A program made the translations under genes and the position numbers. Shown here one piece after another: positions 5,849 through 38,019 of a DNA stretch of 64,000 nt (the first letter of the stretch is position 1; every line of letters starts with the position of its first letter). The notes below the pieces were generated by a model. The model saw nothing but the letters and a program-made list of their open reading frames with translations, was not told where the DNA came from and did not search any database. This DNA comes from a virus, in IMG/VR virus record IMGVR_UViG_3300037011_001068, positions 1 to 64,000 of that record; one strand, written 5' to 3'.

Positions 5849-8199
5849 AGACTTCTGTAATTCTGGAAGCACAGGCCAAAGGTTTTGAACAGGCGGAGCG
5901 GCAAGTGACGGGCTTGAAGGAGTCGGCTGCTAATCTTGCTCTAGATGAAGCGTACAAAAAGGGAGAAAAAGCGGCCGATGGGATGATCAAGAGTGCCGAA
6001 GGTCTTTCTAAGGCGCTTTCGGGCCAGCAAATCTCGGTGACCAAACTCGCAGAATCCATCAAGCAAAAGCTTGAGGATATTGATAAAATCACCTACGAGA
6101 ACGCAGCCGACCAGATCAAGGAGCTGAAGGAAAATCTGTTTGGAGTAGAAAAGCAGGGCATCGCTATGGCGAAAGCGCTGCAAGAAAGTGGGGAGAAGGG
6201 ATCCGAAGAGTACCAGGAGACCAAGAAAGTGCTGAAGGCGCTTGAAGAGCAAGCGAAGACCACCCGCAAAGAAATCGAGATGCTCACCCGGGCTTTCATG
6301 CAAGCGAAGCCGGCGCAGGGCGCTCTTCTTCAGGGTTTTCTCCAGGGGGTTGGTCCGATGGCTTCCGCGTTCCTTCAGCGGGGCCCTGGCATGGGTTCGC
6401 AGTTTCTTGGGCAAATGCTGGGAACAGGCGCTCGGCGAATGGCCATGGCGGGAATCGGGATCGCAGGGTCCATGTTCACGGGTCTTGGAGGCCTTCAGCA
6501 AGGGATTGCTCAGATGCCTTATATGGGGGGCTTTTTTGCTGGCCAGCTTGGGGCAGCGGCCGGGCATGCCGGCCGAGCTTTGGACTGGCAGAAGGCCCAG
6601 CTTGAGCTCCTTCCGTATTTCGGTTCTTCTGGATTTCTGGAAAAAAGAGCAAGTAGAAAAGAAGAGGCTGAGGCGGACTGGAATCTTTTTTCTAAAAAAG
6701 AGGAGCCTCCTAAGCCAAAGTTTCCAGAGGGTGTTAGTGCAACGATGATTTTGGGTAAAGATAATAAAATGCATGCGATACCTGTGATTGATGCTGAAGT
6801 TGCAATAGGTGCTGCCAAAGATATTGCACTTGAAGAGCAAACTAGAAATGTAGGGCGTCGCGGTGAAATGAGAGCTTCTCGGTTGGGATGGGAAGCCAAA
6901 GGTGGAGCAAAACAGTTAGAGGGAATGGATTTGCGTATGTATCAAATGGATAAAGCAACTAAAGATTATGAAGCACAGCAGCTTTGGAAAGAGGAGGAGC
7001 AGCGAAAGAGGACCCAGCTTTTGCAGGAACGCCAGGGATCTTTCGGGGCAGTAGGAGGTGTGGGGCACGAATTACGTGGTCTGGATTTCTTGCAGTCCGT
7101 TCAGGAGGCAGGGCAGCTTATTCAAGCTGGAGGAGGATGGGTAGGAGAAGCAACGCGGAGGGGGGCTATCAGCACAGGTTTTGCAGCGAAAACCATGTAT
7201 GGGGTGGATTATGAGACCTCGGGTGGCTATCTTCGCGCAGCAAGGCGGGGGGGAATGATCAGCGTGGGAGCGGAACAGGATGCGGGAACGCTTCTCTTGT
7301 CTGGATTAAAAGATGCCGTAACCCTGGGGCTCACTGGTGCAGAAGTACCAGAGTATTTGCAGACCATGGTCGGGCAATTTCAACAATGGCAAACGACAGG
7401 CCTTCCCCTCAACGATAAAGGCTTTGGACGGGTTGCATTGAGCCTTTCTCAAGCGGGAATTGCAGCTCCTCGAGCAATGGAGATGACTCGAGGCATTTCC
7501 AATTATCTGCAAGGAATGGGTCAACGTGGAATTCAAAGTGGCTTGGATCTCTACATGCTCCATGCTGTGGGTGGCTATAAAGGCGGCGGTGCAGCGGGGT
7601 ATGTGGGAGCTATCACCGGCATGGAGAGTCTCAAGGGAAGCACAGAAGGGCTTACAAAGGAGAGCCCCATTGGAAAAGCGCTCCTCGGTGTGGTGCAGAT
7701 GATGGCCCTCGGTTCTCCTGCAGGCCAACAAATTTTTATGCAAAAACAGCTTGGAAAAATGGGAATTGCGGCGGGGATGGAAGAAAGTGGCTTGATCTTA
7801 AAAAATCTTACGGGTGCCAAGCTTACTTCTAAAGAGCAAATGGCAATTAATCGTGAAAATCTGCAAAGAGAGCAGGCTACACCAGAGCTTGCAGCGCTTC
7901 AGGGTAAAGATGCACTTTTGACGACCGCAAAGAAATACATCGATGAGCTCACCCCCGGTCTCAAGAAGCAATCAGAAATTCAGAATCATCAACTGGAAGT
8001 TGGAACCAGGCTTTTAACGGCGGTCCAATCATTAGAATCTTCTGCAACGAACACAAATTCTGCTTTTGCATCTCTGGCGTCAGGGCCCATCACACGGTTG
8101 TCCTCCGCTTTTGAAAGCCTTACCGGGTTGATCGATAAATTGACAAATAAGTGGTGGCAAAATACCGAGGCAGAAGCAATAAAGGTTGGTCATAATTGA
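5830..8199 (+). CDS. tape measure protein
   Basis: N-terminal coiled coil; Gly/Ala/Gln-rich helical 789-aa protein after the chaperone. Confidence 0.8.
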   Translation: MADKEVKTSVILEAQAKGFEQAERQVTGLKESAANLALDEAYKKGEKAADGMIKSAEGLSKALSGQQISVTKLAESIKQKLEDIDKITYENAADQIKELKENLFGVEKQGIAMAKALQESGEKGSEEYQETKKVLKALEEQAKTTRKEIEMLTRAFMQAKPAQGALLQGFLQGVGPMASAFLQRGPGMGSQFLGQMLGTGARRMAMAGIGIAGSMFTGLGGLQQGIAQMPYMGGFFAGQLGAAAGHAGRALDWQKAQLELLPYFGSSGFLEKRASRKEEAEADWNLFSKKEEPPKPKFPEGVSATMILGKDNKMHAIPVIDAEVAIGAAKDIALEEQTRNVGRRGEMRASRLGWEAKGGAKQLEGMDLRMYQMDKATKDYEAQQLWKEEEQRKRTQLLQERQGSFGAVGGVGHELRGLDFLQSVQEAGQLIQAGGGWVGEATRRGAISTGFAAKTMYGVDYETSGGYLRAARRGGMISVGAEQDAGTLLLSGLKDAVTLGLTGAEVPEYLQTMVGQFQQWQTTGLPLNDKGFGRVALSLSQAGIAAPRAMEMTRGISNYLQGMGQRGIQSGLDLYMLHAVGGYKGGGAAGYVGAITGMESLKGSTEGLTKESPIGKALLGVVQMMALGSPAGQQIFMQKQLGKMGIAAGMEESGLILKNLTGAKLTSKEQMAINRENLQREQATPELAALQGKDALLTTAKKYIDELTPGLKKQSEIQNHQLEVGTRLLTAVQSLESSATNTNSAFASLASGPITRLSSAFESLTGLIDKLTNKWWQNTEAEAIKVGHN

Positions 8200-27384: not shown

Positions 27385-28872
27385 GTGCTTCTGATCTCAG
27401 TTGAGAATTCTCGAGCGAAGCTTTTTGGCGCTGATGCCTTTGTTTTGAGGGTGCTAGATGCAGAGCTTCGCTATCCCTCGGTATCCATGTCTGGCATTGA
27501 GAAGGGATTCATTGAGACGGCGTGGGATGGCTGGATCCGGTTGCTTCATATTCCGAAGCAGGATTTACCATGGTTTCCAAGCGGGCTCCTTTTTCGCGCA
27601 GTGGAGGTTCTTCAGAAATTTCAGGTGCCTCATCAGGTGGTGGACGTGCGAAAGCGGCCTGACCTTGGGTTTCCGGAAGTTACGGTGTCCATTCCGCTTC
27701 GGGATTATCAGGATGAGGCAGTGCGTTTGGCGGTGAAGGCGGGTCGGGGGGTTTTATCGCTCCCGCCGCGGAGCGGGAAGACTCGGATTGCTTGCGAGCT
27801 CCAGCGGCATCTTGCGCTTCCTACCCTCTGGATTGCGCCCACGGATGCGATCGTGCGGCAAACTCAGGGGGTGATTGAGGGATTTTTTGGCGGAAATTAT
27901 GTAAAGCGCTTGGTTGGTTCTTCTCGGTGGTCTGAGGTTGTGGATGTGGCGGTAGTGGTTTGCACCGCGGCGACGGCTTATGGCCTTCCGTTTGATTTTT
28001 TTCGATCCCGGAAAGTGATCATCGTGGACGAATTTCACCATGGAGCGGCCAAGCAGTATCGTACTATTTTTGGGCAGTGCGACCATGTTTTTTACCGATT
28101 TGGCCTCACGGGAACCTATTTCCGCTCCGGTGACGATGCGCTCGCTATGCATGCCCATATTTCCCAGGTGATTTATGAGATGACCTCGGAGGAGCTCTTG
28201 CGGCGGGGTTACTTGGTCCCGTTGTTTGGTTGTTTTCTTCCATTTGAAGCCAAGAGGCTTCATGGCCTTCCGGTGAAGTCGTTTCATGGAGGCCATGGAA
28301 AGTATGGGATTCACGAGCATGAGGTTCGGAATGCTCTTGTGGTCGATGCGGCGACCTATCTAAGCGAAGCGGGGAAGCGGGTAGTGGTGCTGGTCGGGGT
28401 TAAAAGCCAAGGAGATGAGATCGAGCGGCAGCTTTTAAAAAGATTTCCCAAGCAATCTGGGACTCAGTTTTGTCCGGTGGAGTTTTTGAGCACTAATCGC
28501 CCTCGTTATGTGCAGCAGGCGGTCTTGAAGAGCTTTCTGGCTCACGAGGAGGTTCGGATCCTCATCGGGACCTCGCTACTCGGAGAAGGCGTGGATCTAC
28601 CGGATGCGGATGCGCTTGTTTATGCACGGGGTGAAAAGGCCGCGGTGAGCCTCACCCAGGGAATTTACCGCGTGTGTACCGCGGTTGAGGGAAAAAAATA
28701 CGGGCTTGTGATCGATTTTGTAGATCGCCACAACCGCTACCTGAAGGCGCATGCGCTGGAGAGGCTCCGGATTTATTGGGAGGAGCCTATTTTTGATGTA
28801 AGCGTGCTGGCGGATATGGGGGAATTTGTTCCATGGTTGCGAAAAGTGGAGGCGGAAATGTCGGCTCGTTGA
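27385..28872 (+). CDS. superfamily 2 DNA helicase (UvsW-like)
   Basis: Q motif LRDYQ, Walker A PPRSGKT, Walker B VDEFHH, GLTGT, motif V GEGVDLP. Confidence 0.9.
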   Translation: MLLISVENSRAKLFGADAFVLRVLDAELRYPSVSMSGIEKGFIETAWDGWIRLLHIPKQDLPWFPSGLLFRAVEVLQKFQVPHQVVDVRKRPDLGFPEVTVSIPLRDYQDEAVRLAVKAGRGVLSLPPRSGKTRIACELQRHLALPTLWIAPTDAIVRQTQGVIEGFFGGNYVKRLVGSSRWSEVVDVAVVVCTAATAYGLPFDFFRSRKVIIVDEFHHGAAKQYRTIFGQCDHVFYRFGLTGTYFRSGDDALAMHAHISQVIYEMTSEELLRRGYLVPLFGCFLPFEAKRLHGLPVKSFHGGHGKYGIHEHEVRNALVVDAATYLSEAGKRVVVLVGVKSQGDEIERQLLKRFPKQSGTQFCPVEFLSTNRPRYVQQAVLKSFLAHEEVRILIGTSLLGEGVDLPDADALVYARGEKAAVSLTQGIYRVCTAVEGKKYGLVIDFVDRHNRYLKAHALERLRIYWEEPIFDVSVLADMGEFVPWLRKVEAEMSAR

Positions 28873-28910
28873 AAAAATATTCTTGCGCTCGGGACGAATC
28901 CATGGGAAGG

Positions 28911-28984
28911 TCGGGCTATCTGCGGTAAGAGATTACCCAAGATCCCGAAGCCCGGTGCCACGTCCCGCACCGGGCCATTTTTTT
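28911..28984 (+). ncRNA. candidate structured small RNA plus intrinsic terminator
   Basis: Hairpin TCGGG..ATCT..GGTAA-GAGA-TTACC..AGAT-CCCGA (28911-28948), then GCCCGGTGC-N8-GCACCGGGC and a T7 tract. Confidence 0.45.
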
Positions 28985-29002
28985 GGCTAGAAGGGAGGTT
29001 TC

Positions 29003-29098
29003 ATGATGTGGCTAGAAGGCATTGACTCGTTCATGCGAATGGGGGCATCCTACGGGGACCAGTGCATACTCGACGTTGTCAATCGGGTGATTCGATGA
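29003..29098 (+). CDS. 31-aa leader ORF coupled to the hfq-like gene
   Basis: GGAGG SD; its TGA overlaps ATG 29095 (ATGA). Confidence 0.45.
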   Translation: MMWLEGIDSFMRMGASYGDQCILDVVNRVIR

Positions 29099-29361
29099 GT
29101 GGCATAAAAAGTCCAGGTGTAGGACTTGGAATGGCGTCCAGAAAATCTTTTTCTGCTCCTTCGGCCGCGGTTTTCGGAAAAGGGGCAGAATCGAATTTTT
29201 TTGCGAGAGCAGTGGGCAGGGTAGTCACTCTGAGGCTGCGGGAGGGTGTGAAATCGACGGTGAAGCTTCTCTGGGTAGATATGTATACGATCGGGATTTT
29301 GGACGACCAGGGCCAGGAAGTATTGCTCTACAAGAGTGCGGTTGCATCGATCACGCTATAG
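29095..29361 (+). CDS. hfq: Hfq/Sm-like RNA-binding protein
   Basis: Sm1-like VTLRLREGVKSTVKLLWVDMYTIGI and Sm2-like LLYKSAVASI (Hfq consensus YKHAISTV). Confidence 0.72.
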   Translation: MSGIKSPGVGLGMASRKSFSAPSAAVFGKGAESNFFARAVGRVVTLRLREGVKSTVKLLWVDMYTIGILDDQGQEVLLYKSAVASITL

Positions 29362-29404
29362 TGGCGTGTTTTTTTGGGCCGCCTTACCGCAGAAGGGACG
29401 ACAG

Positions 29405-30028
29405 ATGACATCGCTGAACGTGTCGGAAAAACTTTTCAAAGACTATTCTTATTATAGGGAGCAAACGGCATGGGTAAGAGCTCGTCGCGCTAATAATCCT
29501 TTTGTTTGCGTTTTGAAAGTTACACCAGAGCGATTGAAGCTATTCGGGGTTTTGCAGGCGTGGTGTGCAAATCGGGGGATCAATCCGCGGGAGTGGCTTT
29601 ACACTTTATTTGCTATTCGGAAATTTAATTTTCCACCTAAGCTAGAAGAGGCGTATCTTTGCAGCGAGAAGCACCTTAAGAAATTTCGCACCATTAAGAG
29701 TTTTGAGCCATTCAAGCAGCGGATTTTGGAGGAGGCTTTTACGGAGAATTCACTTTCTGGGGATCGATTTGATCCCAATAAAGACCTTCTTTTACCAGTG
29801 GAGCTCGAGAAGGCACACTATCAACGTTTGGGAAGTCCAGAAATTTGTCTGCAGCAGATCAAGGAGCAGACTTTTGGGTATCATCCCCTTAGCGTTATTT
29901 GCCGGCAGTGTAGGATCCAGGAGGCTTGCAAGAGACATTTAAAATCGATTGTGGGTTTTGATGTCCTTGCACTCCGGCTCGGGCAGATAACGCCGGAGAA
30001 TGCGCGGCGACAAGCTTTTACGAGGTGA
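29405..30028 (+). CDS. hypothetical protein with C-terminal Cys4 motif, upstream of the helicase
   Basis: C-x17-C-x2-C-x5-C. Confidence 0.55.
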   Translation: MTSLNVSEKLFKDYSYYREQTAWVRARRANNPFVCVLKVTPERLKLFGVLQAWCANRGINPREWLYTLFAIRKFNFPPKLEEAYLCSEKHLKKFRTIKSFEPFKQRILEEAFTENSLSGDRFDPNKDLLLPVELEKAHYQRLGSPEICLQQIKEQTFGYHPLSVICRQCRIQEACKRHLKSIVGFDVLALRLGQITPENARRQAFTR

Positions 30029-30031
30029 GCC

Positions 30032-31486
30032 ATGACACGCGATAATGGCTCATCCGTGCAACGGCAACCCGTTGGGTCGGTACAATTTCCATTTGGCGTT
30101 TCCTTCCAGAAAACGCTTGTTCGGCTTCTTTGCGAGGATCCGAATTTTGCCTCTGCAGTCCTTTCTTATCTGGCTTCACAGTTTTTTGAGAATGATGCGC
30201 TTTCTTGGGCTTTTGAGCGAATTTTGGCTTACCATGCAAAGTATGATGCTATTCCCCCGCTTCCCGTGCTTCTCGATGAGTCGCGGCGTGTGGATTCGTC
30301 GGTAGCTCAGATCTATCAAGCGACGCTTGAAGAGGTGCGGATCGCGGATCTTACCGCTGAGCAGTGGCTTCGTGATCAGGTGCTCGAATTTATCAGGCGG
30401 AACGTGTTTGTGAAGGCTTTCCGTGACAGCCGTGAGCAGTACAATCAAGGGGATTTTCAAGCGGCTTATGATACGATGATGGAAGCGGTGGATCGCATAT
30501 CTAATGTGCAGATTCAGGCGGTAGATCGGGAATTCTTTTTCGAGGCATTTTCTCAGCGGCAGGCAAAGCGTTTGAGCGGGGATGCAAAAGAGGATCCGGT
30601 TCCCACTGGTATTTTTGACCTTGATAAGATTTTGAATGGCGGGTTGTCCCGCGGAGAGCTGGGGATTTGGGTAGCATACCCTAAGAGGGGTAAGTCCACG
30701 CTCCTCGTGAATCATGGGGTGCAAGCTATTCGGAGAGCAAATGTGAACGTTCTCCATTTGATCTATGAGGGGAAACGACAAATGGCATCGGATCGGTACG
30801 ATGCTATTTTCGCTCAGGAGCAATATTGGCAGATTCGGCGTGGTGACATGAGCGAGGAGAGGGTTCGTGCGCTCCAATATGAATATGGAATGTATAGGCA
30901 GAAGCTTGTGATTCGTGGGTTCACGGAGCATTGGGATTATTCGGTGGAATCGATCCATGAGGAGATCCGTGGGCTCCAGAGACAATTTGGGTGGGAGCCG
31001 GCTCTTGTGATCATTGATTACGGGGATCTTTTGAAGGGCCGAGGAAAATATCGGGACAGCTTTGAGAGCCAGCGAACGGTGTATCGTGACATTAAAACCC
31101 TTGCCAATCGGGGATACGCGATTTGGACGGCGAGTCAGGCGCAGCGTCCTTCCGGAGACGTGGACATGAGCTCTGAGATTTTAAAGAGCCGCCGGGTTGC
31201 AGATTGCTATGACAAAGTTCGAGTCGCGGATTTTCTTGGCACGATTAATCAAACGCTTGAGGAGCGAAAGGCTAGGCAAATGCGGCTTTTTGCGGAGCTT
31301 TATCGGGATAATGAAGCTGACAAGGTTATTTCGGTGAAGGCGGACTTCGCAAAAATGACTATTAGCTCGGTTGTAGATCCAAGTGAAGGAATTATTCTTA
31401 ATCCAGTGCATGCTCCTATTCCTTTGGGTTACAAATCAGGGGGAACAACCGGAAAATATCCTACGCAGCGGAGGGCGCCGTTATGA
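30032..31486 (+). CDS. dnaB: DnaB-like replicative helicase
   Basis: PTGIFDLDKILNGG, Walker A AYPKRGKST, IIDYGDLL, WTASQAQR. Confidence 0.9.
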   Translation: MTRDNGSSVQRQPVGSVQFPFGVSFQKTLVRLLCEDPNFASAVLSYLASQFFENDALSWAFERILAYHAKYDAIPPLPVLLDESRRVDSSVAQIYQATLEEVRIADLTAEQWLRDQVLEFIRRNVFVKAFRDSREQYNQGDFQAAYDTMMEAVDRISNVQIQAVDREFFFEAFSQRQAKRLSGDAKEDPVPTGIFDLDKILNGGLSRGELGIWVAYPKRGKSTLLVNHGVQAIRRANVNVLHLIYEGKRQMASDRYDAIFAQEQYWQIRRGDMSEERVRALQYEYGMYRQKLVIRGFTEHWDYSVESIHEEIRGLQRQFGWEPALVIIDYGDLLKGRGKYRDSFESQRTVYRDIKTLANRGYAIWTASQAQRPSGDVDMSSEILKSRRVADCYDKVRVADFLGTINQTLEERKARQMRLFAELYRDNEADKVISVKADFAKMTISSVVDPSEGIILNPVHAPIPLGYKSGGTTGKYPTQRRAPL

Positions 31487-32496
31487 TCAACGGGTTTGAT
31501 CTTGAGGGATACTTGCAGTTCAAGGGTGCAAGGCCGGTACAGCGAGATGAGTGGGTTCTTCAGTGTCCGATTTGCGAGAAGCTGAAGCTCGCGGTGAACA
31601 TCACGAAAAAGCGCTGGCATTGCTGGATTTGCGAGACCTATCAGGCACGGTCGGATGGGAGCCGGGTAGCGACGAAAGGCGCTGGGGGGATCGTTGCGCT
31701 CATCATGCTGCTTGAGAATTGCACGCGGGAGCGAGCGGAGGCTTGGTTATCCTGGTATGGCTGGCGAGGGCAATCGCTTGGAGGGGTATCGCAGATCGAT
31801 GGTGACTTGATCGAGGATTTTCGGATTTCGGACGGTTCGAGACCTCTTCCAGAAATAGCCTATCCACCGTATACGCGATCTTTAGGTGGAGGCAATTTGC
31901 CTTATTGTCAAAAGCGTGGTATTATGGCGGAAGATGTCCAGCAATTCGGCCTTGCCTACTGTGAGGCAGGTCGGTATGGCGGGCGTCTTCTTTTTCCGGT
32001 CTTTGAGTTTCAGAGGTTGGTCTACTTTCAAGCTCGGGCCACTTGGGATCCGCAGCCGGGGGAACCTTACGTGAAGGCGTTGAATCCTCCGGTGCATTCA
32101 GGAGGGGCGGGCGCGAAGGATGTGCTCCTGAATTTGGATGTGGCGCGGAATTTTCGCAGGGTGGCGGTGGTGGAAGGGCCCGTGGACGCGATTCATACGG
32201 GGCCCTCGGCGGTGGCGACGTTTGGAAAACACATCAGTCCGGCGCAGACGATGAAGCTTCGTCAGGCGGGTGTACGGGCCCTGGACTTGATGTGGGACGG
32301 TCCCGGACCAACTGAGCCTATGGGGGCATGGCCGGAGATGATGAAGGCATCCAGGCAGCTTGCAGGGCTCTTTGATGTGCGGTTGGTTTTCCTTCCTCGA
32401 GGGGATCCCGGGGAGTATCACCGGGGGGAGCTGGAGTGGTTCCGTCGGTATCACGCGAGGCCTGCAGAGTCGGTGTCGGGGCTCGCGTATCTATAA
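31483..32496 (+). CDS. DNA primase
   Basis: Zn finger CPIC...WHCWIC; GRLLFPV...FQAR; TOPRIM VVEGPVDA...MWD. Confidence 0.9.
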   Translation: MINGFDLEGYLQFKGARPVQRDEWVLQCPICEKLKLAVNITKKRWHCWICETYQARSDGSRVATKGAGGIVALIMLLENCTRERAEAWLSWYGWRGQSLGGVSQIDGDLIEDFRISDGSRPLPEIAYPPYTRSLGGGNLPYCQKRGIMAEDVQQFGLAYCEAGRYGGRLLFPVFEFQRLVYFQARATWDPQPGEPYVKALNPPVHSGGAGAKDVLLNLDVARNFRRVAVVEGPVDAIHTGPSAVATFGKHISPAQTMKLRQAGVRALDLMWDGPGPTEPMGAWPEMMKASRQLAGLFDVRLVFLPRGDPGEYHRGELEWFRRYHARPAESVSGLAYL

Positions 32497-33527: not shown

Positions 33528-33578
33528 AGCGTTAAGGTATACAGGAAGGATGAAGTCCAGAAAATCGTGGAGGAAAAA

Positions 33579-34736
33579 ATGGGTGCTCAAACCCCCGAAT
33601 GTTACGGAATTCTTTGGGATGGCAGTCCTGAGGGAGAGTGCTTGCGATGCCAAGTCCAGGCAGACTGCTTGGATGTTTTCACTCTCCAGGAGCTTCCAAA
33701 ACTGAAAGCGAAGGCAGGACCTAATTTTTCGGTGGAGAAATTGGCAATGCTGGCGGGGGTGCCTGAGGCGGCAATAGAAATCGCTCTCCAGCGTGAGGCG
33801 CGAGAACCTGTAACTCCCCCAGGATTCGCAGCTCAGCTGGTGGGTCCTACTTCGCCTCTTCCGCACTCGCCAGCATCGTCTCAACGTGTGGATCTCGATT
33901 TTGCTGAAGAGGGATCCGAAGGAGAAGAGGAGCCTGAAGAGGAGCTTGAGGGGGAGGGTGCGCGGGGATTAGAGAAACCAGCGCATCTAGTCATTGAGGC
34001 TTTTCCGGAGAAGCCGGGGGAGCCTGAGGAAACAAAGTTTGTGAAGGAGGAGGTAATGCCCCGTAAAAGAGGGCGCCCGCGAAAGGTGCCACCGACCCCG
34101 CTTCTCGAAAAGAAGGGGGGCAAGAAAGAGAGCCCGCTGAAGCATCTTGCTACGCGGACCCCAGCGTCGGAGCTCCCTCCGGAGCCCAAGAAGTCTGCTC
34201 TGGAGGCTAAGAAGGGTACTCCGGTGGTGGGAAAAGGAAGAAAGAAGGAGCCGGTCAAAAAGCCGGAACAACTTCCCCGCCCTTCGAGGGCCCGATCTGC
34301 CAAGCCTGTGGTGGATCGGGCCGGGGACAGACAGGCATATGCCAGGAGTGTAGCGGAGCTGGCAGAAATAGCACTCAGAAAGAAGGAAGCGATCCCGCAG
34401 TGGGAATGGGGCTCGGATCACGATCAGAGCCGATTTTTTCGGGAACGGAAGAGGAGCCGGATCATTGCCCTCCTGACTCCGGGGATGAAAATCCTCCGGG
34501 AATGGGAGGGGCGGATCTACGAGGTCCTGGTCCAAAAAGACGGATACCGGTTTGCAGGCAAAAAATATCCCACCCTGTATGCAGTCAGGATTGCGATAAC
34601 GGGGAGGCGATGGACCCTGAAACAAACGAGGGATGGGAAGAGGAGCCCGGGTCTTCGCCCGACAGGGAATTGCGGGGCAGTAAGATGGTTCCAGTTGGAG
34701 AAATTTCTGGAGAAGAGAGGAGTTTCTTTGACCTGA
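33579..34736 (+). CDS. Cys4 + acidic + AT-hook + DUF2924-like DNA-binding protein
   Basis: CYG...C..C.....C; Glu-rich tract; PRKRGRPRK; TPGMKILREWEG..YEV...GYRFAGKKYPTL.A...AITG.RW. Confidence 0.7.
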   Translation: MGAQTPECYGILWDGSPEGECLRCQVQADCLDVFTLQELPKLKAKAGPNFSVEKLAMLAGVPEAAIEIALQREAREPVTPPGFAAQLVGPTSPLPHSPASSQRVDLDFAEEGSEGEEEPEEELEGEGARGLEKPAHLVIEAFPEKPGEPEETKFVKEEVMPRKRGRPRKVPPTPLLEKKGGKKESPLKHLATRTPASELPPEPKKSALEAKKGTPVVGKGRKKEPVKKPEQLPRPSRARSAKPVVDRAGDRQAYARSVAELAEIALRKKEAIPQWEWGSDHDQSRFFRERKRSRIIALLTPGMKILREWEGRIYEVLVQKDGYRFAGKKYPTLYAVRIAITGRRWTLKQTRDGKRSPGLRPTGNCGAVRWFQLEKFLEKRGVSLT

Positions 34737-34999: not shown

Positions 35000-35201
35000 G
35001 TGGCGCGTCCGGGTTCCAATTGTCGGCCTGGCAGAGGCGGACGTGTGGGCGCGGACGCGAGAAGAAGCGGAAGAGACCCTGCGGGGCACTTCCCCTCTTT
35101 CTGTCCTTCGGGGCTCTCTTTCGCTTCTTCGCTTAGGGTATAATTTCGAGGCGGCAACGGTGGAATGTGCAGGGGGATCTCCTGATGCCGATGCAGATTA
35201 A
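34971..35201 (+). CDS. small hypothetical protein
   Basis: Fills the gap before the polymerase. Confidence 0.45.
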   Translation: MPNPSSKKVRWRVRVPIVGLAEADVWARTREEAEETLRGTSPLSVLRGSLSLLRLGYNFEAATVECAGGSPDADAD

Positions 35202-38019
35202 TCCCCATCAATGCACTTCGGGGGCTTTGGACACCGGATCGCCCGATAAGGAAATCGTGTGGCGAATGGATCAGGTTGGGCCGATGGTTCGCTTTCTTCA
35301 GGCGAGCCCCATTTTAATTTTCGATTTTGAGACCTCTGGGCTGGCGTATTTTCGGGATGCTGCGGCTTGTGGCATTGCCTTGGCGGGAGTGGATCAGGAG
35401 GGCCAGAGGCGCTCTTATTATGTGCCTTTCAGGCATGCGACCATTTTTCGCCAGCTCCCTATCGAGGTGGTTTCCCAGGGGGTGGCGCCGCTTCTCGCGG
35501 ATCCGAATAAGCTGAAGATCGCGCACCACATTAAATTCGATGAGCACATGGCGCGGCGGGAAGGATGGCGCGTGGAAGGGAAGCGCTATGACACCATGAT
35601 TGCCGCGCACATTGCGGATGAAAATAAGCCTATAGGATTGAAAAGTCGTGCGATGAGCGATCTGCATCGAAATGATGCAGATTATTGGGAAGGTCGTGTT
35701 GATGCGGAAGTTCGACAGCTCGCAAAAAAAGAAGGTCTTGGGATCGCTGCTTATCGTGAAAAATATGGTTATTCTCAGGTGCCACTTCCGATCGTTGGTC
35801 CATACGCATGCTTGGATGTGGAGCTCACGCATGAGCTCTACAAGCTTTACGAGAAAAATGGGCTTTCTTCTTTTTATGGGCCCATTTTCAGCACTGAATC
35901 CAAGCTCACGGGAATTCTCTGCGAAATGGAGGAGGAGGGCCTTCCCATCGATGTGCCTTACGTCCAGAAATTGAGGGAAAATCTTGTGGCGGTGCAGGCT
36001 CAATTGCTGGATTCTATTTTTCGGATAATTCCTGGGAAGCGTTTTAATTTGGCGTCCGATCAGGAGCTCCGTGATTTTTTGACTTGCGATCTGCGGCTCC
36101 CTCTCCACAAATTAACGGAGAAGGAACAGCTTGCGGTGGATGCGGAGGTCCTCGAGGAATTTTCTGCAGCTCATCCAGCAATTTCATTTATTTTGCAATG
36201 GAGAGAAGCGGAAAAAATTCGGAATACCTACACCACGTCTATCCTCTCTCGGTTGGATCGGAATAATATTCTGCACCCGGATTATCAGCAAGTCGGGACG
36301 GTGACTGGTCGGCTTGCTTGCAAATCCCCGAATTTTCAAAATCAGGTGAGGGATGATGATGATCGAGCAAAGAAGCACAGTGGGAAGGGGCTCAAGGAAG
36401 GGGGTGTGGATCCCTGGTCAGTCCGGAGGGCGTATGTTAATCGTGGGCCCGGTTGGGTGCGGTTATTTTTTGACTATTGTTTACATCCTTCGACGTTAGT
36501 GGAGACGGTTGCGGGAAAGCGGGCTTTGGGAGATCTTAAACCTAGGGATAGGGTTTTCACTTGTCGGAATATGGAGATTTCGAGTGGTGAGGTTTCTCGA
36601 GCAGTTCGGATCGGGAAACTCCCCGCTTACAAGATCAATTTCGATAATGGGGAAAGCGTAATTGCTTCTGTGGATCATGAGTGGCCTGTGGCGATTATAA
36701 AAGGTCAGCAGTTTTATCAGATTAAAAGAAAGACGGAGAATCTTCAGGAGGGCCAGTGGGTATTATCTGCGAAGTTGACTGAAAAGGGATGTATATATGA
36801 TGATAGGGTTAGCTCCATTGAATATGTAGGTTTACAAGAGATGTTTGCGATCACAGTGGAGCCTGATCATAATTATATTCTTGGGTGCGGGGTGGTTACC
36901 TGTAATTCTCAAATCGAATTGAGGGTTTTGGCTCATTATTCTCAGGATCCCACTTTGGTTGAGGCGTATCTTACCGGGGAAGATATTCATTCCAGGACTT
37001 CGATGGAGGTTTTTGGGAATAAGTCTTCTCGCCAGCTCGCGAAGATTCTTAATTTCGGCCTTTGTATTGCTGGTGGGCAGAAGGTCTTGACGCGCCAAGA
37101 TGGCCTTGTGCCGATTGAGCAAGTGCAGGATAGGCATTTTCTCTGGGATGGCGTTGATTGGGTTAGACATGCTGGCCTAGTATGCCGGGGGGAAAAGGGT
37201 GTCGTGACGTATGAGGATCTCACTGCGACGCCAGAGCATTTGGTTTTTTTGAAAGGTGGCCGATCTATTCCGATCGGATGCCTTGCATCCTCTATTAGTT
37301 CTGGGCGTCTTGCTCTTGGCGCGGTTGGAGAGGATCCCGTTAAATATTTTGCAGCTTATGGGCCACACTGGTATGCGATAGAGAATTCAGGTTGTGAGAG
37401 CTGCATGAGTTGTTCGCCATGCTTGAAGACAGCAGTGGTATATGATCTTCTGGATGCTGGCCCGCGAAATAGATTTACGGTTGAGGGGAAAATTGTGTCT
37501 AACTCCTATTGTATGTCGGCGATTGGTTACAGCCGCAACGCCAAGATCCCTCAAGAAGAGGCTGAAAAGCACATGGCTCAGTTTTTTGCTCGGTATAGCG
37601 GTATTAAACCCTTTCGCGAGAAACTATGGGCGGAAGTGCAGAGTCAGCGGGGTTATTTCCAGAATATTTTTGGGCGACCCCGAAGAGTGATCGGAATTCT
37701 TTCTCCGGGACGGCAGGCTGTATCGAGGGCTCGCCGGCAGATTATCTCGACCTTGATTCAAGGTACTGCAGCCGAGCTCACGAAAGAGAGCCTTTGCCGG
37801 ATTCATGATTTTTTGCGAGCAGAGAATATTCCCGCGAAGATTGTTGCGACCGTACATGATGAGATTCAGATTGATTGCCCGGTTGGGTCCTTGTCCAGAG
37901 TCGCGCGTGAGACGAAACGATTGATGGAGGATTTTTCACAGTTTGCTCCGATTCCTATCCTCGTGGATGGGCAATATTCCACGCAGAGCTGGAGCGATAA
38001 GCAATCGCTTCCACTGTGA
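35185..38019 (+). CDS. polA: family A DNA polymerase with 3'-5' exonuclease, interrupted by two inteins
   Basis: ExoI FDFETSGL, ExoII HHIKFD, ExoIII YACLD; TGRL; motif A DY|SQIELR; motif B AKILNFGL|SY; IQGTAAE; motif C TVHDEI. Confidence 0.95.
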   Translation: MPMQINPHQCTSGALDTGSPDKEIVWRMDQVGPMVRFLQASPILIFDFETSGLAYFRDAAACGIALAGVDQEGQRRSYYVPFRHATIFRQLPIEVVSQGVAPLLADPNKLKIAHHIKFDEHMARREGWRVEGKRYDTMIAAHIADENKPIGLKSRAMSDLHRNDADYWEGRVDAEVRQLAKKEGLGIAAYREKYGYSQVPLPIVGPYACLDVELTHELYKLYEKNGLSSFYGPIFSTESKLTGILCEMEEEGLPIDVPYVQKLRENLVAVQAQLLDSIFRIIPGKRFNLASDQELRDFLTCDLRLPLHKLTEKEQLAVDAEVLEEFSAAHPAISFILQWREAEKIRNTYTTSILSRLDRNNILHPDYQQVGTVTGRLACKSPNFQNQVRDDDDRAKKHSGKGLKEGGVDPWSVRRAYVNRGPGWVRLFFDYCLHPSTLVETVAGKRALGDLKPRDRVFTCRNMEISSGEVSRAVRIGKLPAYKINFDNGESVIASVDHEWPVAIIKGQQFYQIKRKTENLQEGQWVLSAKLTEKGCIYDDRVSSIEYVGLQEMFAITVEPDHNYILGCGVVTCNSQIELRVLAHYSQDPTLVEAYLTGEDIHSRTSMEVFGNKSSRQLAKILNFGLCIAGGQKVLTRQDGLVPIEQVQDRHFLWDGVDWVRHAGLVCRGEKGVVTYEDLTATPEHLVFLKGGRSIPIGCLASSISSGRLALGAVGEDPVKYFAAYGPHWYAIENSGCESCMSCSPCLKTAVVYDLLDAGPRNRFTVEGKIVSNSYCMSAIGYSRNAKIPQEEAEKHMAQFFARYSGIKPFREKLWAEVQSQRGYFQNIFGRPRRVIGILSPGRQAVSRARRQIISTLIQGTAAELTKESLCRIHDFLRAENIPAKIVATVHDEIQIDCPVGSLSRVARETKRLMEDFSQFAPIPILVDGQYSTQSWSDKQSLPL
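36478..36906 (+). mobile_element. mini-intein 1 (143 aa) in PolA motif A
   Basis: Starts CLHPST, block B SVDHEW, ends HNYILGCGVVTCN followed by Ser; removal restores DYSQIELR. Confidence 0.92.
37063..37503 (+). mobile_element. mini-intein 2 (147 aa) in PolA motif B
   Basis: Starts CIAGG, block B TPEH, ends VYDLLDAGPRNRFTVEGKIVSN followed by Ser; removal restores NFGLSY. Confidence 0.92.

Follow-up and report, generated by a model that had tools for sequence, protein, structure and literature searches.

Hfq was originally identified as a host factor of an RNA phage. The terminators of Hfq-binding small RNAs (sRNAs) typically have at least seven T (PMC5558911), and in Staphylococcus aureus, RNAIII uses C-rich UCCC loops (those of H7, H13, and its 3' hairpin, H14) to bind ribosome sites rich in G (PMC2837412). 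In the literature searched, we found no description of an Hfq encoded by a phage, the nearest being a 2025 report on LSm-like proteins of phage T4, in which GoF(D25Y), a protein of LSm fold, confers stability on RNA that has the leader of gene 41, which encodes the replicative helicase (PMC12152347). Here, we describe a replication locus of an uncultured phage where a gene for a divergent Hfq-like protein is situated between a terminator-type hairpin and the start of a gene for a 207-residue protein (p207), and where the complementarity of the hairpin loop to the p207 ribosome-binding site co-varies between phages. The DNA analysed, henceforth the window, is the first 64 kb (64,000 nucleotides, nt) of the IMG/VR virus record IMGVR_UViG_3300037011_001068, whose full length is 105,756 bp with a CheckV completeness of ~98%. 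As a whole, the locus seems to us best explained by a divergent Hfq-type gene in a fixed gene block together with a co-varying hairpin that would serve as an anti-Shine-Dalgarno (anti-SD) element on p207, a reading to which we give roughly even chances. The features on which it turns are these, with p207 and the Hfq-like protein modelled by AlphaFold2 (AF2).

28950–28984, + strand: conserved terminator-type stem-loop followed by seven T (from a terminator scan, folds, and relatives)
29131–29361, + strand: gene for the Hfq-like (Sm-fold) protein, 76 amino acids (aa), or 88 aa from the alternative ATG 29095 (from Pfam, profile, AF2, Foldseek, and synteny)
29395–29407, + strand: p207 translation initiation region with GGGACG (29395–29400), the complement of the hairpin loop, and ATG 29405
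29405–30028, + strand: gene for p207, 207 aa, all-helical with four invariant Cys (from alignment and AF2)

The record belongs to a contractile-tailed phage, as it includes genes for a tail sheath, a baseplate, and a tail lysin. Neither its DNA nor its proteins found a match in the GenBank phage collection, and three sediment metagenome runs hold nearly identical DNA, in the form of low-depth contigs without useful variation. For comparison, 13 loci with an Hfq-like gene were obtained from pattern scans, and many further loci of the same clade (uncultured myoviruses of ~100 kb) came from scans with p207 and DnaB, the DnaB-based sampling amounting to 80 of the ~570 DnaB relatives in IMG/VR.

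The open reading frame (ORF) at 29131–29361 encodes a divergent Sm-fold protein of the Hfq type, and on this point Pfam, family profiles, the AF2 model, and Foldseek all agree with the Sm fold proposed in the initial annotation. In Pfam, the window protein matched Hfq_1 (4.5e-5, 23.9 bits) and Hfq (1e-4, 22.3 bits) and no other families, with both matches lying under the gathering threshold of 27 bits for Hfq (PF17209 / PF21979). A search of 1.8 billion cluster representatives gave five remote relatives only, with identities of 40–46%, and these match Hfq models alone, one of them (P0005) being above the cut-off at 29.3 bits; the genomic contexts of these remote homologues (P0004–P0008) are known from pattern scans only. 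Against the protein data bank (PDB), the family profile matched Hfq structures alone, foremost that from Methanocaldococcus jannaschii (4.5e-7 over the full length), followed by those from Caulobacter (2.4e-5) and Aquifex, and a 19-member profile likewise matched Hfq alone and in the same order. The AF2 model comprises a helix (residues 31–39) and five strands, with a mean predicted local distance difference test (pLDDT) score of 81, a core at 91–97, and a disordered stretch of 30 residues at the N-terminus. All top Foldseek matches of this model were Hfq structures, with template modelling (TM) scores to the target of 0.77–0.88 and a root-mean-square deviation of 1.0–1.3 Å, and the sequence identity of the window protein to Hfq is 16–27%.

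The predicted subunit contact points in the same direction. A four-copy self-association model scored 0.56, as opposed to 0.00 for the best of three controls, on a scale where 20 of 30 proteins solved as same-chain pairs attain that mark, as does one of 23 solved as single chains. Contacts agreed by at least 74% between runs, the partner pLDDT was at least 68, and the modelled interface, in which the N-terminal helix also takes part, sets strand 4 against strand 5 of the neighbour, which is the Sm ring contact. Four copies were the modelling maximum and fall short of a six-copy ring, and the pass may reflect likeness to the solved Hfq rings.

The best profile and fold matches, these being M. 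jannaschii Hfq (MJ1435; PDB 2QTX, 4X9C, and 5DY9) and the bacterial Hfq from Caulobacter (6GWK), Aquifex (5SZD), and S. aureus (1KQ1/3QSU), share with the phage protein a length of ~70–80 aa, a basic N-terminal tail, one helix, and five strands, along with an invariant Lys in the Sm2 box, a Tyr at the F/Y42 position, and the predicted contact between strands 4 and 5. In contrast to Hfq, the phage family has W-V-D-R-Y in place of the (S)FDQF segment, Glu at the position of Gln8, and Arg, Val, or Ala at the distal-face Tyr/Phe25, the YKH His is not conserved, and the window protein stays under the Pfam cut-off. With its basic N-terminal tail and no C-terminal tail, the layout of the family is closer to that of the archaeal M. 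jannaschii protein. Relatives outside phages did not come to light: the Hfq-like protein had no counterpart among 185,579 species genomes in a pattern scan, a word-index search with it returned the protein itself only, and PHROGs gave no match. The family is phage-only, in that it is found in phage replication modules and not in cellular genomes, and we would class it as a phage-borne branch of its own among the Hfq-type Sm proteins. The Tevenvirinae proteins GoF, MotB.1, and Frd.2 (PMC12152347) are likewise phage-encoded with an Sm/LSm fold, and the GoF mutant links this fold to the expression of a replication gene; however, no sequence relation to them was seen (and PHROGs, as said, held no match), they are early genes outside a fixed replication block, and they are less Hfq-like than the present family.

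In an alignment of 19 members, a Leu, the Trp of W-V-D-R-Y, and the Lys of the Sm2 box are invariant, and the Glu of P-E-S, a Val, an Asp, and a Gly are nearly so. The Sm2 box of the window protein reads Y-K-S-A as opposed to the Y-K-H-A of Hfq, so that the pattern [YF]-K-H-A-[IV], with His57 of the proximal uridine/3'-end pocket, is absent. The initial annotation had singled out this YKSA, and it is indeed present, but it is not special to this phage: because the residue after the Lys varies across the family (His, Ser, Asp, Glu, Gln, Asn, Ala, or Arg), the Ser at the position of the YKH His is ordinary family variation. As a natural Hfq-like lineage, the family thus shows the His of the YKH box to be dispensable. 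When aligned to the Aquifex and M. jannaschii Hfq, the proximal pocket keeps the Tyr at the F/Y42 position and Lys56, Gln8 is aligned with Glu, and Gln41 with Arg for the family but Met for the window copy. On the distal face, the aromatic residue at position 25 is absent and is replaced by Arg in the window protein and by Arg, Val, or Ala in its relatives. Two copies that depart strongly from the W-V-D-R-Y and Y-K-H segments, invariant otherwise, were noticed elsewhere, one in L025 (3675–3980; W-V-A-P-Y with N-K-A-Y) and one in L035 (2613–2837; W-V-A-T-H with F-K-R-G), and these may be decaying or re-purposed.

Upstream of this gene, the hairpin at 28950–28984 has a stem (28950–28958/28967–28975) of 9 bp, eight of which are G-C, and an 8-nt loop (CACGTCCC, 28959–28966), with seven T at 28978–28984, placed 2 nt past the stem and 78 nt past the stop codon of the preceding helicase gene; it has the sequence features of an intrinsic terminator. 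The hairpin (28950–28975) has an energy between about −19 and −21 kcal/mol, and its loop is predicted to be unpaired with a probability of ~0.95. In nearly all relatives, a hairpin with a T-run is found 90–135 nt past the helicase stop codon, the stems differing widely and the loops being C-rich. These stems and loops were taken from per-locus folds, as MAFFT could not register hairpins of differing stem length. A loop motif (C/T)GTCCC is found in the window and in L004, L005, L007, L014, L015, L016, L044, and L107, with variants elsewhere, and apart from 28950–28984, no GTCCC-loop hairpin in the 105.7-kb genome is followed by a T-run. Judged by its sequence, the hairpin with its U7 is a clade-wide terminator-type element that closes the helicase unit. 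Two further hairpins lie nearby.

28911–28948, + strand: hairpin with a GAGA (GNRA-type) loop in the 3' untranslated region of the helicase gene (from a minimum free energy fold; not conserved)
29352–29375, + strand: weak hairpin (seven pairs, 3-nt loop) across the stop codon of the Hfq-like gene, followed by seven T (from a terminator scan)

The GAGA hairpin and the terminator with seven T had been reported in the initial annotation at 28911–28984, and both are present in the sequence, but the structured RNA that they were taken to form is not borne out. The 130-nt region at 28873–29002 folds no better than its shuffles (z = −0.98), Rfam has no family there (one weak osmY match elsewhere was below threshold), and related loci have other hairpins at the place of the GAGA hairpin with no sequence in common. 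Moreover, a sigma-70 scan gave no promoter-like site near 28.9 kb, though its consensus may not be that of the host. The weak hairpin at 29352–29375, which the initial annotation does not mention, is specific to this phage, since the gap between the Hfq-like gene and p207 is just 0–26 nt in relatives and too short to hold one.

More conspicuously, we observed that part of the terminator loop, CGTCCC (28961–28966), is complementary to GGGACG at −10 from the p207 ATG, and that GGGACG is the sole 6-nt complement of the strict loop within 1.9 kb downstream. Similar pairs were found in related phages, where the loop and the p207 site read as follows: CCTGTCCC and GGGACAGG in L005, TGTCCCTT and AAGGGACA in L044, TGTCCCT and AGGGACA in L015, CGTCCCC and GGGGACG in L014, TCTCATCCCC and GGGGATGAGA in L009, TATCCCC and GGGGATA in L017, ACCCGTCCCC and GGGGATGGGT in L016 (with one G-U), and TGTCCCC and GGGGACG in L107 (with one U-G). 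The two sides change together, GTCCC/GGGAC having become ATCCCC/GGGGAT in L009 and L017, with G-U intermediates in L016, L004, and L107. In an automated test that compared the loop and 2 nt on each side with positions −24 to +6 of p207 in 24 independent loci, the mean Watson-Crick run was 5.33 for a locus's own pair and 4.47 for cross-locus pairs, with a permutation p of 6e-5 (all 24 loci) or 8e-4 (the 17 discovery loci). Furthermore, the p207 site was the unique best complement within 1–2 kb downstream, a stretch that spans all other gene starts of the block, in seven of the 24 loci, these being L005 (8 nt), L009 (10 nt), L014 (9 nt), L015 (7 nt), L030 (7 nt), L034 (6 nt), and L044 (8 nt); three of them (L030, L034, and L044) belong to the seven validation loci. 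The complementarity of the loop to the p207 ribosome-binding site thus co-varies between phages, and in about half of the loci it has the form of an anti-SD pairing, with an unpaired seed, the initiation region of a target gene, and compensatory change. GGGAC occurs at two of 92 crude ORF starts of the phage, and so is not a general ribosome site. As a separate observation on composition, the + strand of the whole genome holds 22 copies of GTCCC and the − strand 92, which amounts to a fourfold excess of GGGAC on the coding strand.

Two related candidates can be mentioned here. A GGGAC partner 5' of the hairpin, as a pseudoknot or kissing site, was considered and dropped, being present by eye in some loci only. 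A second complement of the loop was seen right after the T-run in L107 (AAGGGGAC, ~2445–2452) and L007 (GAAAGGGA, 5954–5961), and this could pair with the loop as a pseudoknot or point to the ribosome site of the next gene as a second target.

Several points weigh against an anti-SD hairpin served by an Hfq-type protein. The validation subset on its own, fetched after the idea had formed, gave a permutation p of 0.094 (n = 7), and about half of the loci are without a match (L002, L003, L013, L022, L023, L025, L032, L036, L040, and L041), while in L007, which also lacks the p152 gene described below, the complement is found at the start of the Hfq-like gene instead. In the window, the complementarity is 6 nt only, and local pairing is predicted to engage the GG of the site. 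Shared ancestry means that part of the co-occurrence of loop and site was inherited and does not count as independent compensation, and termination, read-through, and a discrete RNA are all putative. On the protein side, the family conserves neither the distal-face aromatic residue nor the proximal His of Hfq, and the window copy has lost three basic residues that are mostly kept (the Lys in LKG, the Arg in WVDRY, and the His in YKH). Finally, pairing is also found in phages without the Hfq-like gene (L017, L021, L034, and L107). A long-sequence duplex fold of the untranslated region with the p207 region was uninformative.

Some of these points would suit a simpler explanation, according to which the complementarity comes from chance and base composition (C-rich loops and G-rich sites), with nothing more than a terminator in the hairpin and a drifting passenger in the Hfq-like gene; the short match in the window, the loci without one, and the lost basic residues would all be expected from it. 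However, the cross-locus permutation controls for composition and still gave p = 6e-5, and in seven of 24 loci the unique best site falls in a 30-nt target out of ~1.8 kb, and because of these two results we consider chance or composition quite improbable. Also speaking against it are the rarity of GGGAC at the other gene starts of the phage and the Hfq-like ORF itself, which is intact in ~20 deeply diverged loci with its invariant residues.

The anti-SD reading, then, would have the loop lower the translation of p207. On transcripts that read through the hairpin, the loop could act in cis; as part of a stable, U-tailed 3' end on the helicase mRNA, it could also act in trans. The supply of p207, just ahead of DnaB, would follow the transcription of the early helicase unit. 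More weakly, a ring of the Hfq-like protein may bind the U-tail or the hairpin and speed or tune the pairing, as Hfq does with U-tailed sRNAs, its gene being encoded between the two pairing partners. The closest counterparts of the RNA element are the RNAIII loops, other sRNAs with a UCCC motif, and the anti-SD loop of Escherichia coli CyaR (PMC2837412), with which it shares an unpaired C-rich loop (CGUCCC), a stable hairpin, and a G-rich complement at a ribosome site. Unlike RNAIII and CyaR, the phage loop belongs to a terminator-type hairpin at the end of a protein-coding unit further upstream in the same operon block, has one putative target gene 0.4–0.8 kb downstream on the same strand, and may act in cis. 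Likewise, a GC-rich hairpin, seven U, a short seed against a start region, and an Hfq-type gene at hand are reminiscent of Hfq-dependent sRNAs (PMC5558911), but the phage seed is in the terminator loop rather than in a 5' single strand, and the phage protein lacks the His that in E. coli Hfq contacts the RNA 3' end.

How far the protein takes part is a separate matter. The initial annotation had suggested an sRNA-chaperone module regulating replication genes, and this idea gains indirect support from the loop being complementary to the p207 ribosome site and co-varying with it, a support limited by the occurrence of the same pairing without the Hfq-like gene, by the discrete RNA being putative, and by the leader ORF being more likely a remnant of p152. 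In fact, pairing is independent of that gene (9–10 of 16 loci with it and three of eight without), and its presence in phages that lack the gene implies that the RNA element does not need the protein. A helper role of the Hfq-like protein in the pairing is plausible but unproven, and a self-contained riboregulatory circuit, in which the U-tailed hairpin of the helicase mRNA is an anti-SD RNA against p207 and the phage supplies its own Hfq-type matchmaker, is a tentative proposal that we consider possible rather than probable. If true, such a circuit could work in hosts that may lack Hfq, and it raises the question of whether some phages bring their own RNA matchmaker to time their replication proteins. 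The covariation gives precise mutations for a simple reporter, although the host is uncultured.

Reverse-complement copies that co-vary would also be expected for two DNA sites read by one co-evolving protein, and replication modules commonly hold origins and operators. The loop and the start site could in that case be inverted DNA sites for a single DNA-binding protein (an initiator or repressor, perhaps p207 itself) flanking the p152/Hfq-like segment. Against this, one copy invariably occupies the single-stranded loop of a strong hairpin, with a T-run directly following on the coding strand, and the other invariably covers the ribosome site (positions −14 to −4 relative to the start). Moreover, the length and register of the match vary by locus (from 5 to 10 nt), unlike what a fixed protein site would show, and several of the imperfect positions are G-U, which pair in RNA only. 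We regard a pair of DNA sites as unlikely.

The genes and ORFs around the hairpin also comprise the following.

27385–28872, + strand: superfamily 2 (SF2; ResIII/DEAD-type) DNA helicase (Pfam ResIII 1.7e-15 and Helicase_C 1.7e-6; PHROG 16, DNA helicase, 1.1e-57)
28990–29098, + strand: strong SD (GAAGGGAGG, 28990–28998) and a 31-codon ORF (29003–29098), a probable decayed remnant of p152
30032–31486, + strand: DnaB-type replicative helicase (Pfam DnaB_C 4.9e-12; PHROG 19, 1e-52)
31483–32496, + strand: DNA primase (PHROG 47, DNA primase, 9e-29)

In every locus, the block runs in the order of SF2 helicase, hairpin with T-run, p152 (usually), Hfq-like gene (optional), p207, DnaB, and primase. The SF2 helicase is its first gene, with relatives 44–58% identical and at the same place in all loci. 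While the initial annotation had placed the Hfq-like unit between this helicase and dnaB, and both do flank it, p207 separates the Sm gene from dnaB. Whether or not a locus has the Hfq-like gene, p207 is found throughout the clade, directly 5' of DnaB, and it is this position alone that suggests a role as a loader or initiator. Its alignment (A2) has 23 invariant columns and its AF2 model a pLDDT of 84, yet no sequence match was found in Pfam, PHROGs, or the PDB, and as to its fold, Foldseek gave E > 0.05 for the PDB and BFVD, and the VIA-wide Z was at most 4.3.

Every Hfq-like gene found, in more than 20 uncultured myovirus loci, is directly 5' of p207 and DnaB, and no other location was seen. 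On a DnaB tree, the gene is patchy, with well-supported branches forcing at least five gains or losses, and even the close sisters L030 and L034 differ in having it. Because of this patchiness, the Hfq-like gene is an accessory and often lost part of a fixed replication block, and not a core replisome gene. Its strict confinement to this block, beside p207, DnaB, and primase, would nonetheless also be compatible with a ring that is a factor of the replisome or of DNA transactions (acting on single-stranded DNA, primer RNA, or an origin R-loop, or docking on p207, DnaB, or primase), the hairpin being a plain helicase terminator. The basic N-terminal tail of the family, the canonical RNA faces of Hfq that are not kept, and the RNA pairing that exists without the gene all sit well with such a factor, and E. 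coli Hfq is reported to act in DNA transactions in two reviews (PMC4963395 and PMC12029325). On the other hand, DNA binding or a protein partner is purely conjectural here, the frequent loss of the gene between close relatives (L030 vs L034) argues against a core replisome part, and the covariation of loop and site, with which there is no conflict, would be left unexplained. A replisome or DNA-transaction role is therefore possible in our estimation, if doubtful.

Related replication blocks were also noticed inside two closed chromosomes that are metagenome-assembled genomes (MAGs), namely L107 in CP070677.1 (Latescibacterota, 3.59 Mb) and L110 in CP070713.1 (Myxococcales, 3.25 Mb). The DnaB of L107 is 53% and that of L110 40% identical, both modules are without an Hfq-like gene, and the two blocks hint at hosts, perhaps at a temperate or mis-assembled state.

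It had also been proposed that the protein forms mixed rings with host Hfq and poisons it. An anti-host factor of this kind, which co-assembles with host Hfq or soaks up host sRNAs, would fit the Sm fold with its ring-type interface and the departures from the RNA-binding residues of Hfq. However, the gene has a fixed place in the replication block and is not among early host-takeover genes, the family is confined to phages as far as the pattern scan of 185,579 species genomes shows, the identity to Hfq is just 16–27%, and the residues that the family keeps (L, W-V-D, and K) differ from those of Hfq. Additionally, the His position is free to vary, so that the Ser does not look like a targeted change, and a search with Pfam Hfq gave no match in CP070677.1 and CP070713.1, which are MAGs with related modules and not the proven host of this phage. 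Altogether, we hold the poisoning of host Hfq to be unsupported and very improbable.

Between the T-run and the Hfq-like gene, relatives have directly the SD and ATG of p152 (140–170 aa), the end of which overlaps the Hfq-like start, and the window is without a p152 gene. In its place, the initial annotation had seen a 31-aa leader ORF coupled by ATGA to an 88-aa protein. The 31-codon ORF and the overlap do exist, as the TGA of the former overlaps ATG 29095 and the frame is open from there to 29361, but we doubt both the 88-aa form and the coupling. The N-terminus of homologues reads M-E-A-R-K or similar, aligning with the M-A-S-R-K that begins at ATG 29131, and the public annotation has the 76-aa form; because both fit ATG 29131, the ATGA at 29095 is questionable as a junction, and the functional start of the Hfq-like gene is probably ATG 29131 and not the ATGA overlap. 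When a p152 profile was compared with the six frames of 450 nt, two collinear weak matches were found in the frame of the 31-aa ORF, across three stops (E 0.013), the last part of which overlaps the conserved Hfq-like start and so is not independent evidence. Pfam and PHROGs held no match for the 31-aa ORF, and Pfam held none for p152. On balance, we lean towards the 31-aa ORF being a decayed p152 stump that kept its ribosome site, and hence a remnant sooner than a designed leader.

Within the coding region of the disordered N-terminal tail of the Hfq-like protein, there is another hairpin (29151–29202; −17.8 kcal/mol), followed after 5 nt by seven T, which may be a coincidence, given that the T-run encodes a conserved N-F-F. 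Close by, at the start of the same gene, TCCAGAAAAT (29134–29143) is a one-off variant of the 10-mer TCCAG(A/C)AATT.

Farther along the window, a 389-aa protein with a DUF2924 domain (5.8e-12) is encoded 3' of the primase (33567–34736), and a family-A-type DNA polymerase (35167–38019; PHROG 17, 2.7e-95) has an insert at about residues 442–604 that matches the terminase PHROG phrog_15 and looks like an intein or a homing-endonuclease insert. The SF2 helicase genes of L002 (2179–4719), L013, L017, L022, and L024 have an in-frame insert of ~1 kb with an intein-like look, the tblastn matches being split in two and the L002 helicase being 846 aa long as opposed to 495 aa.

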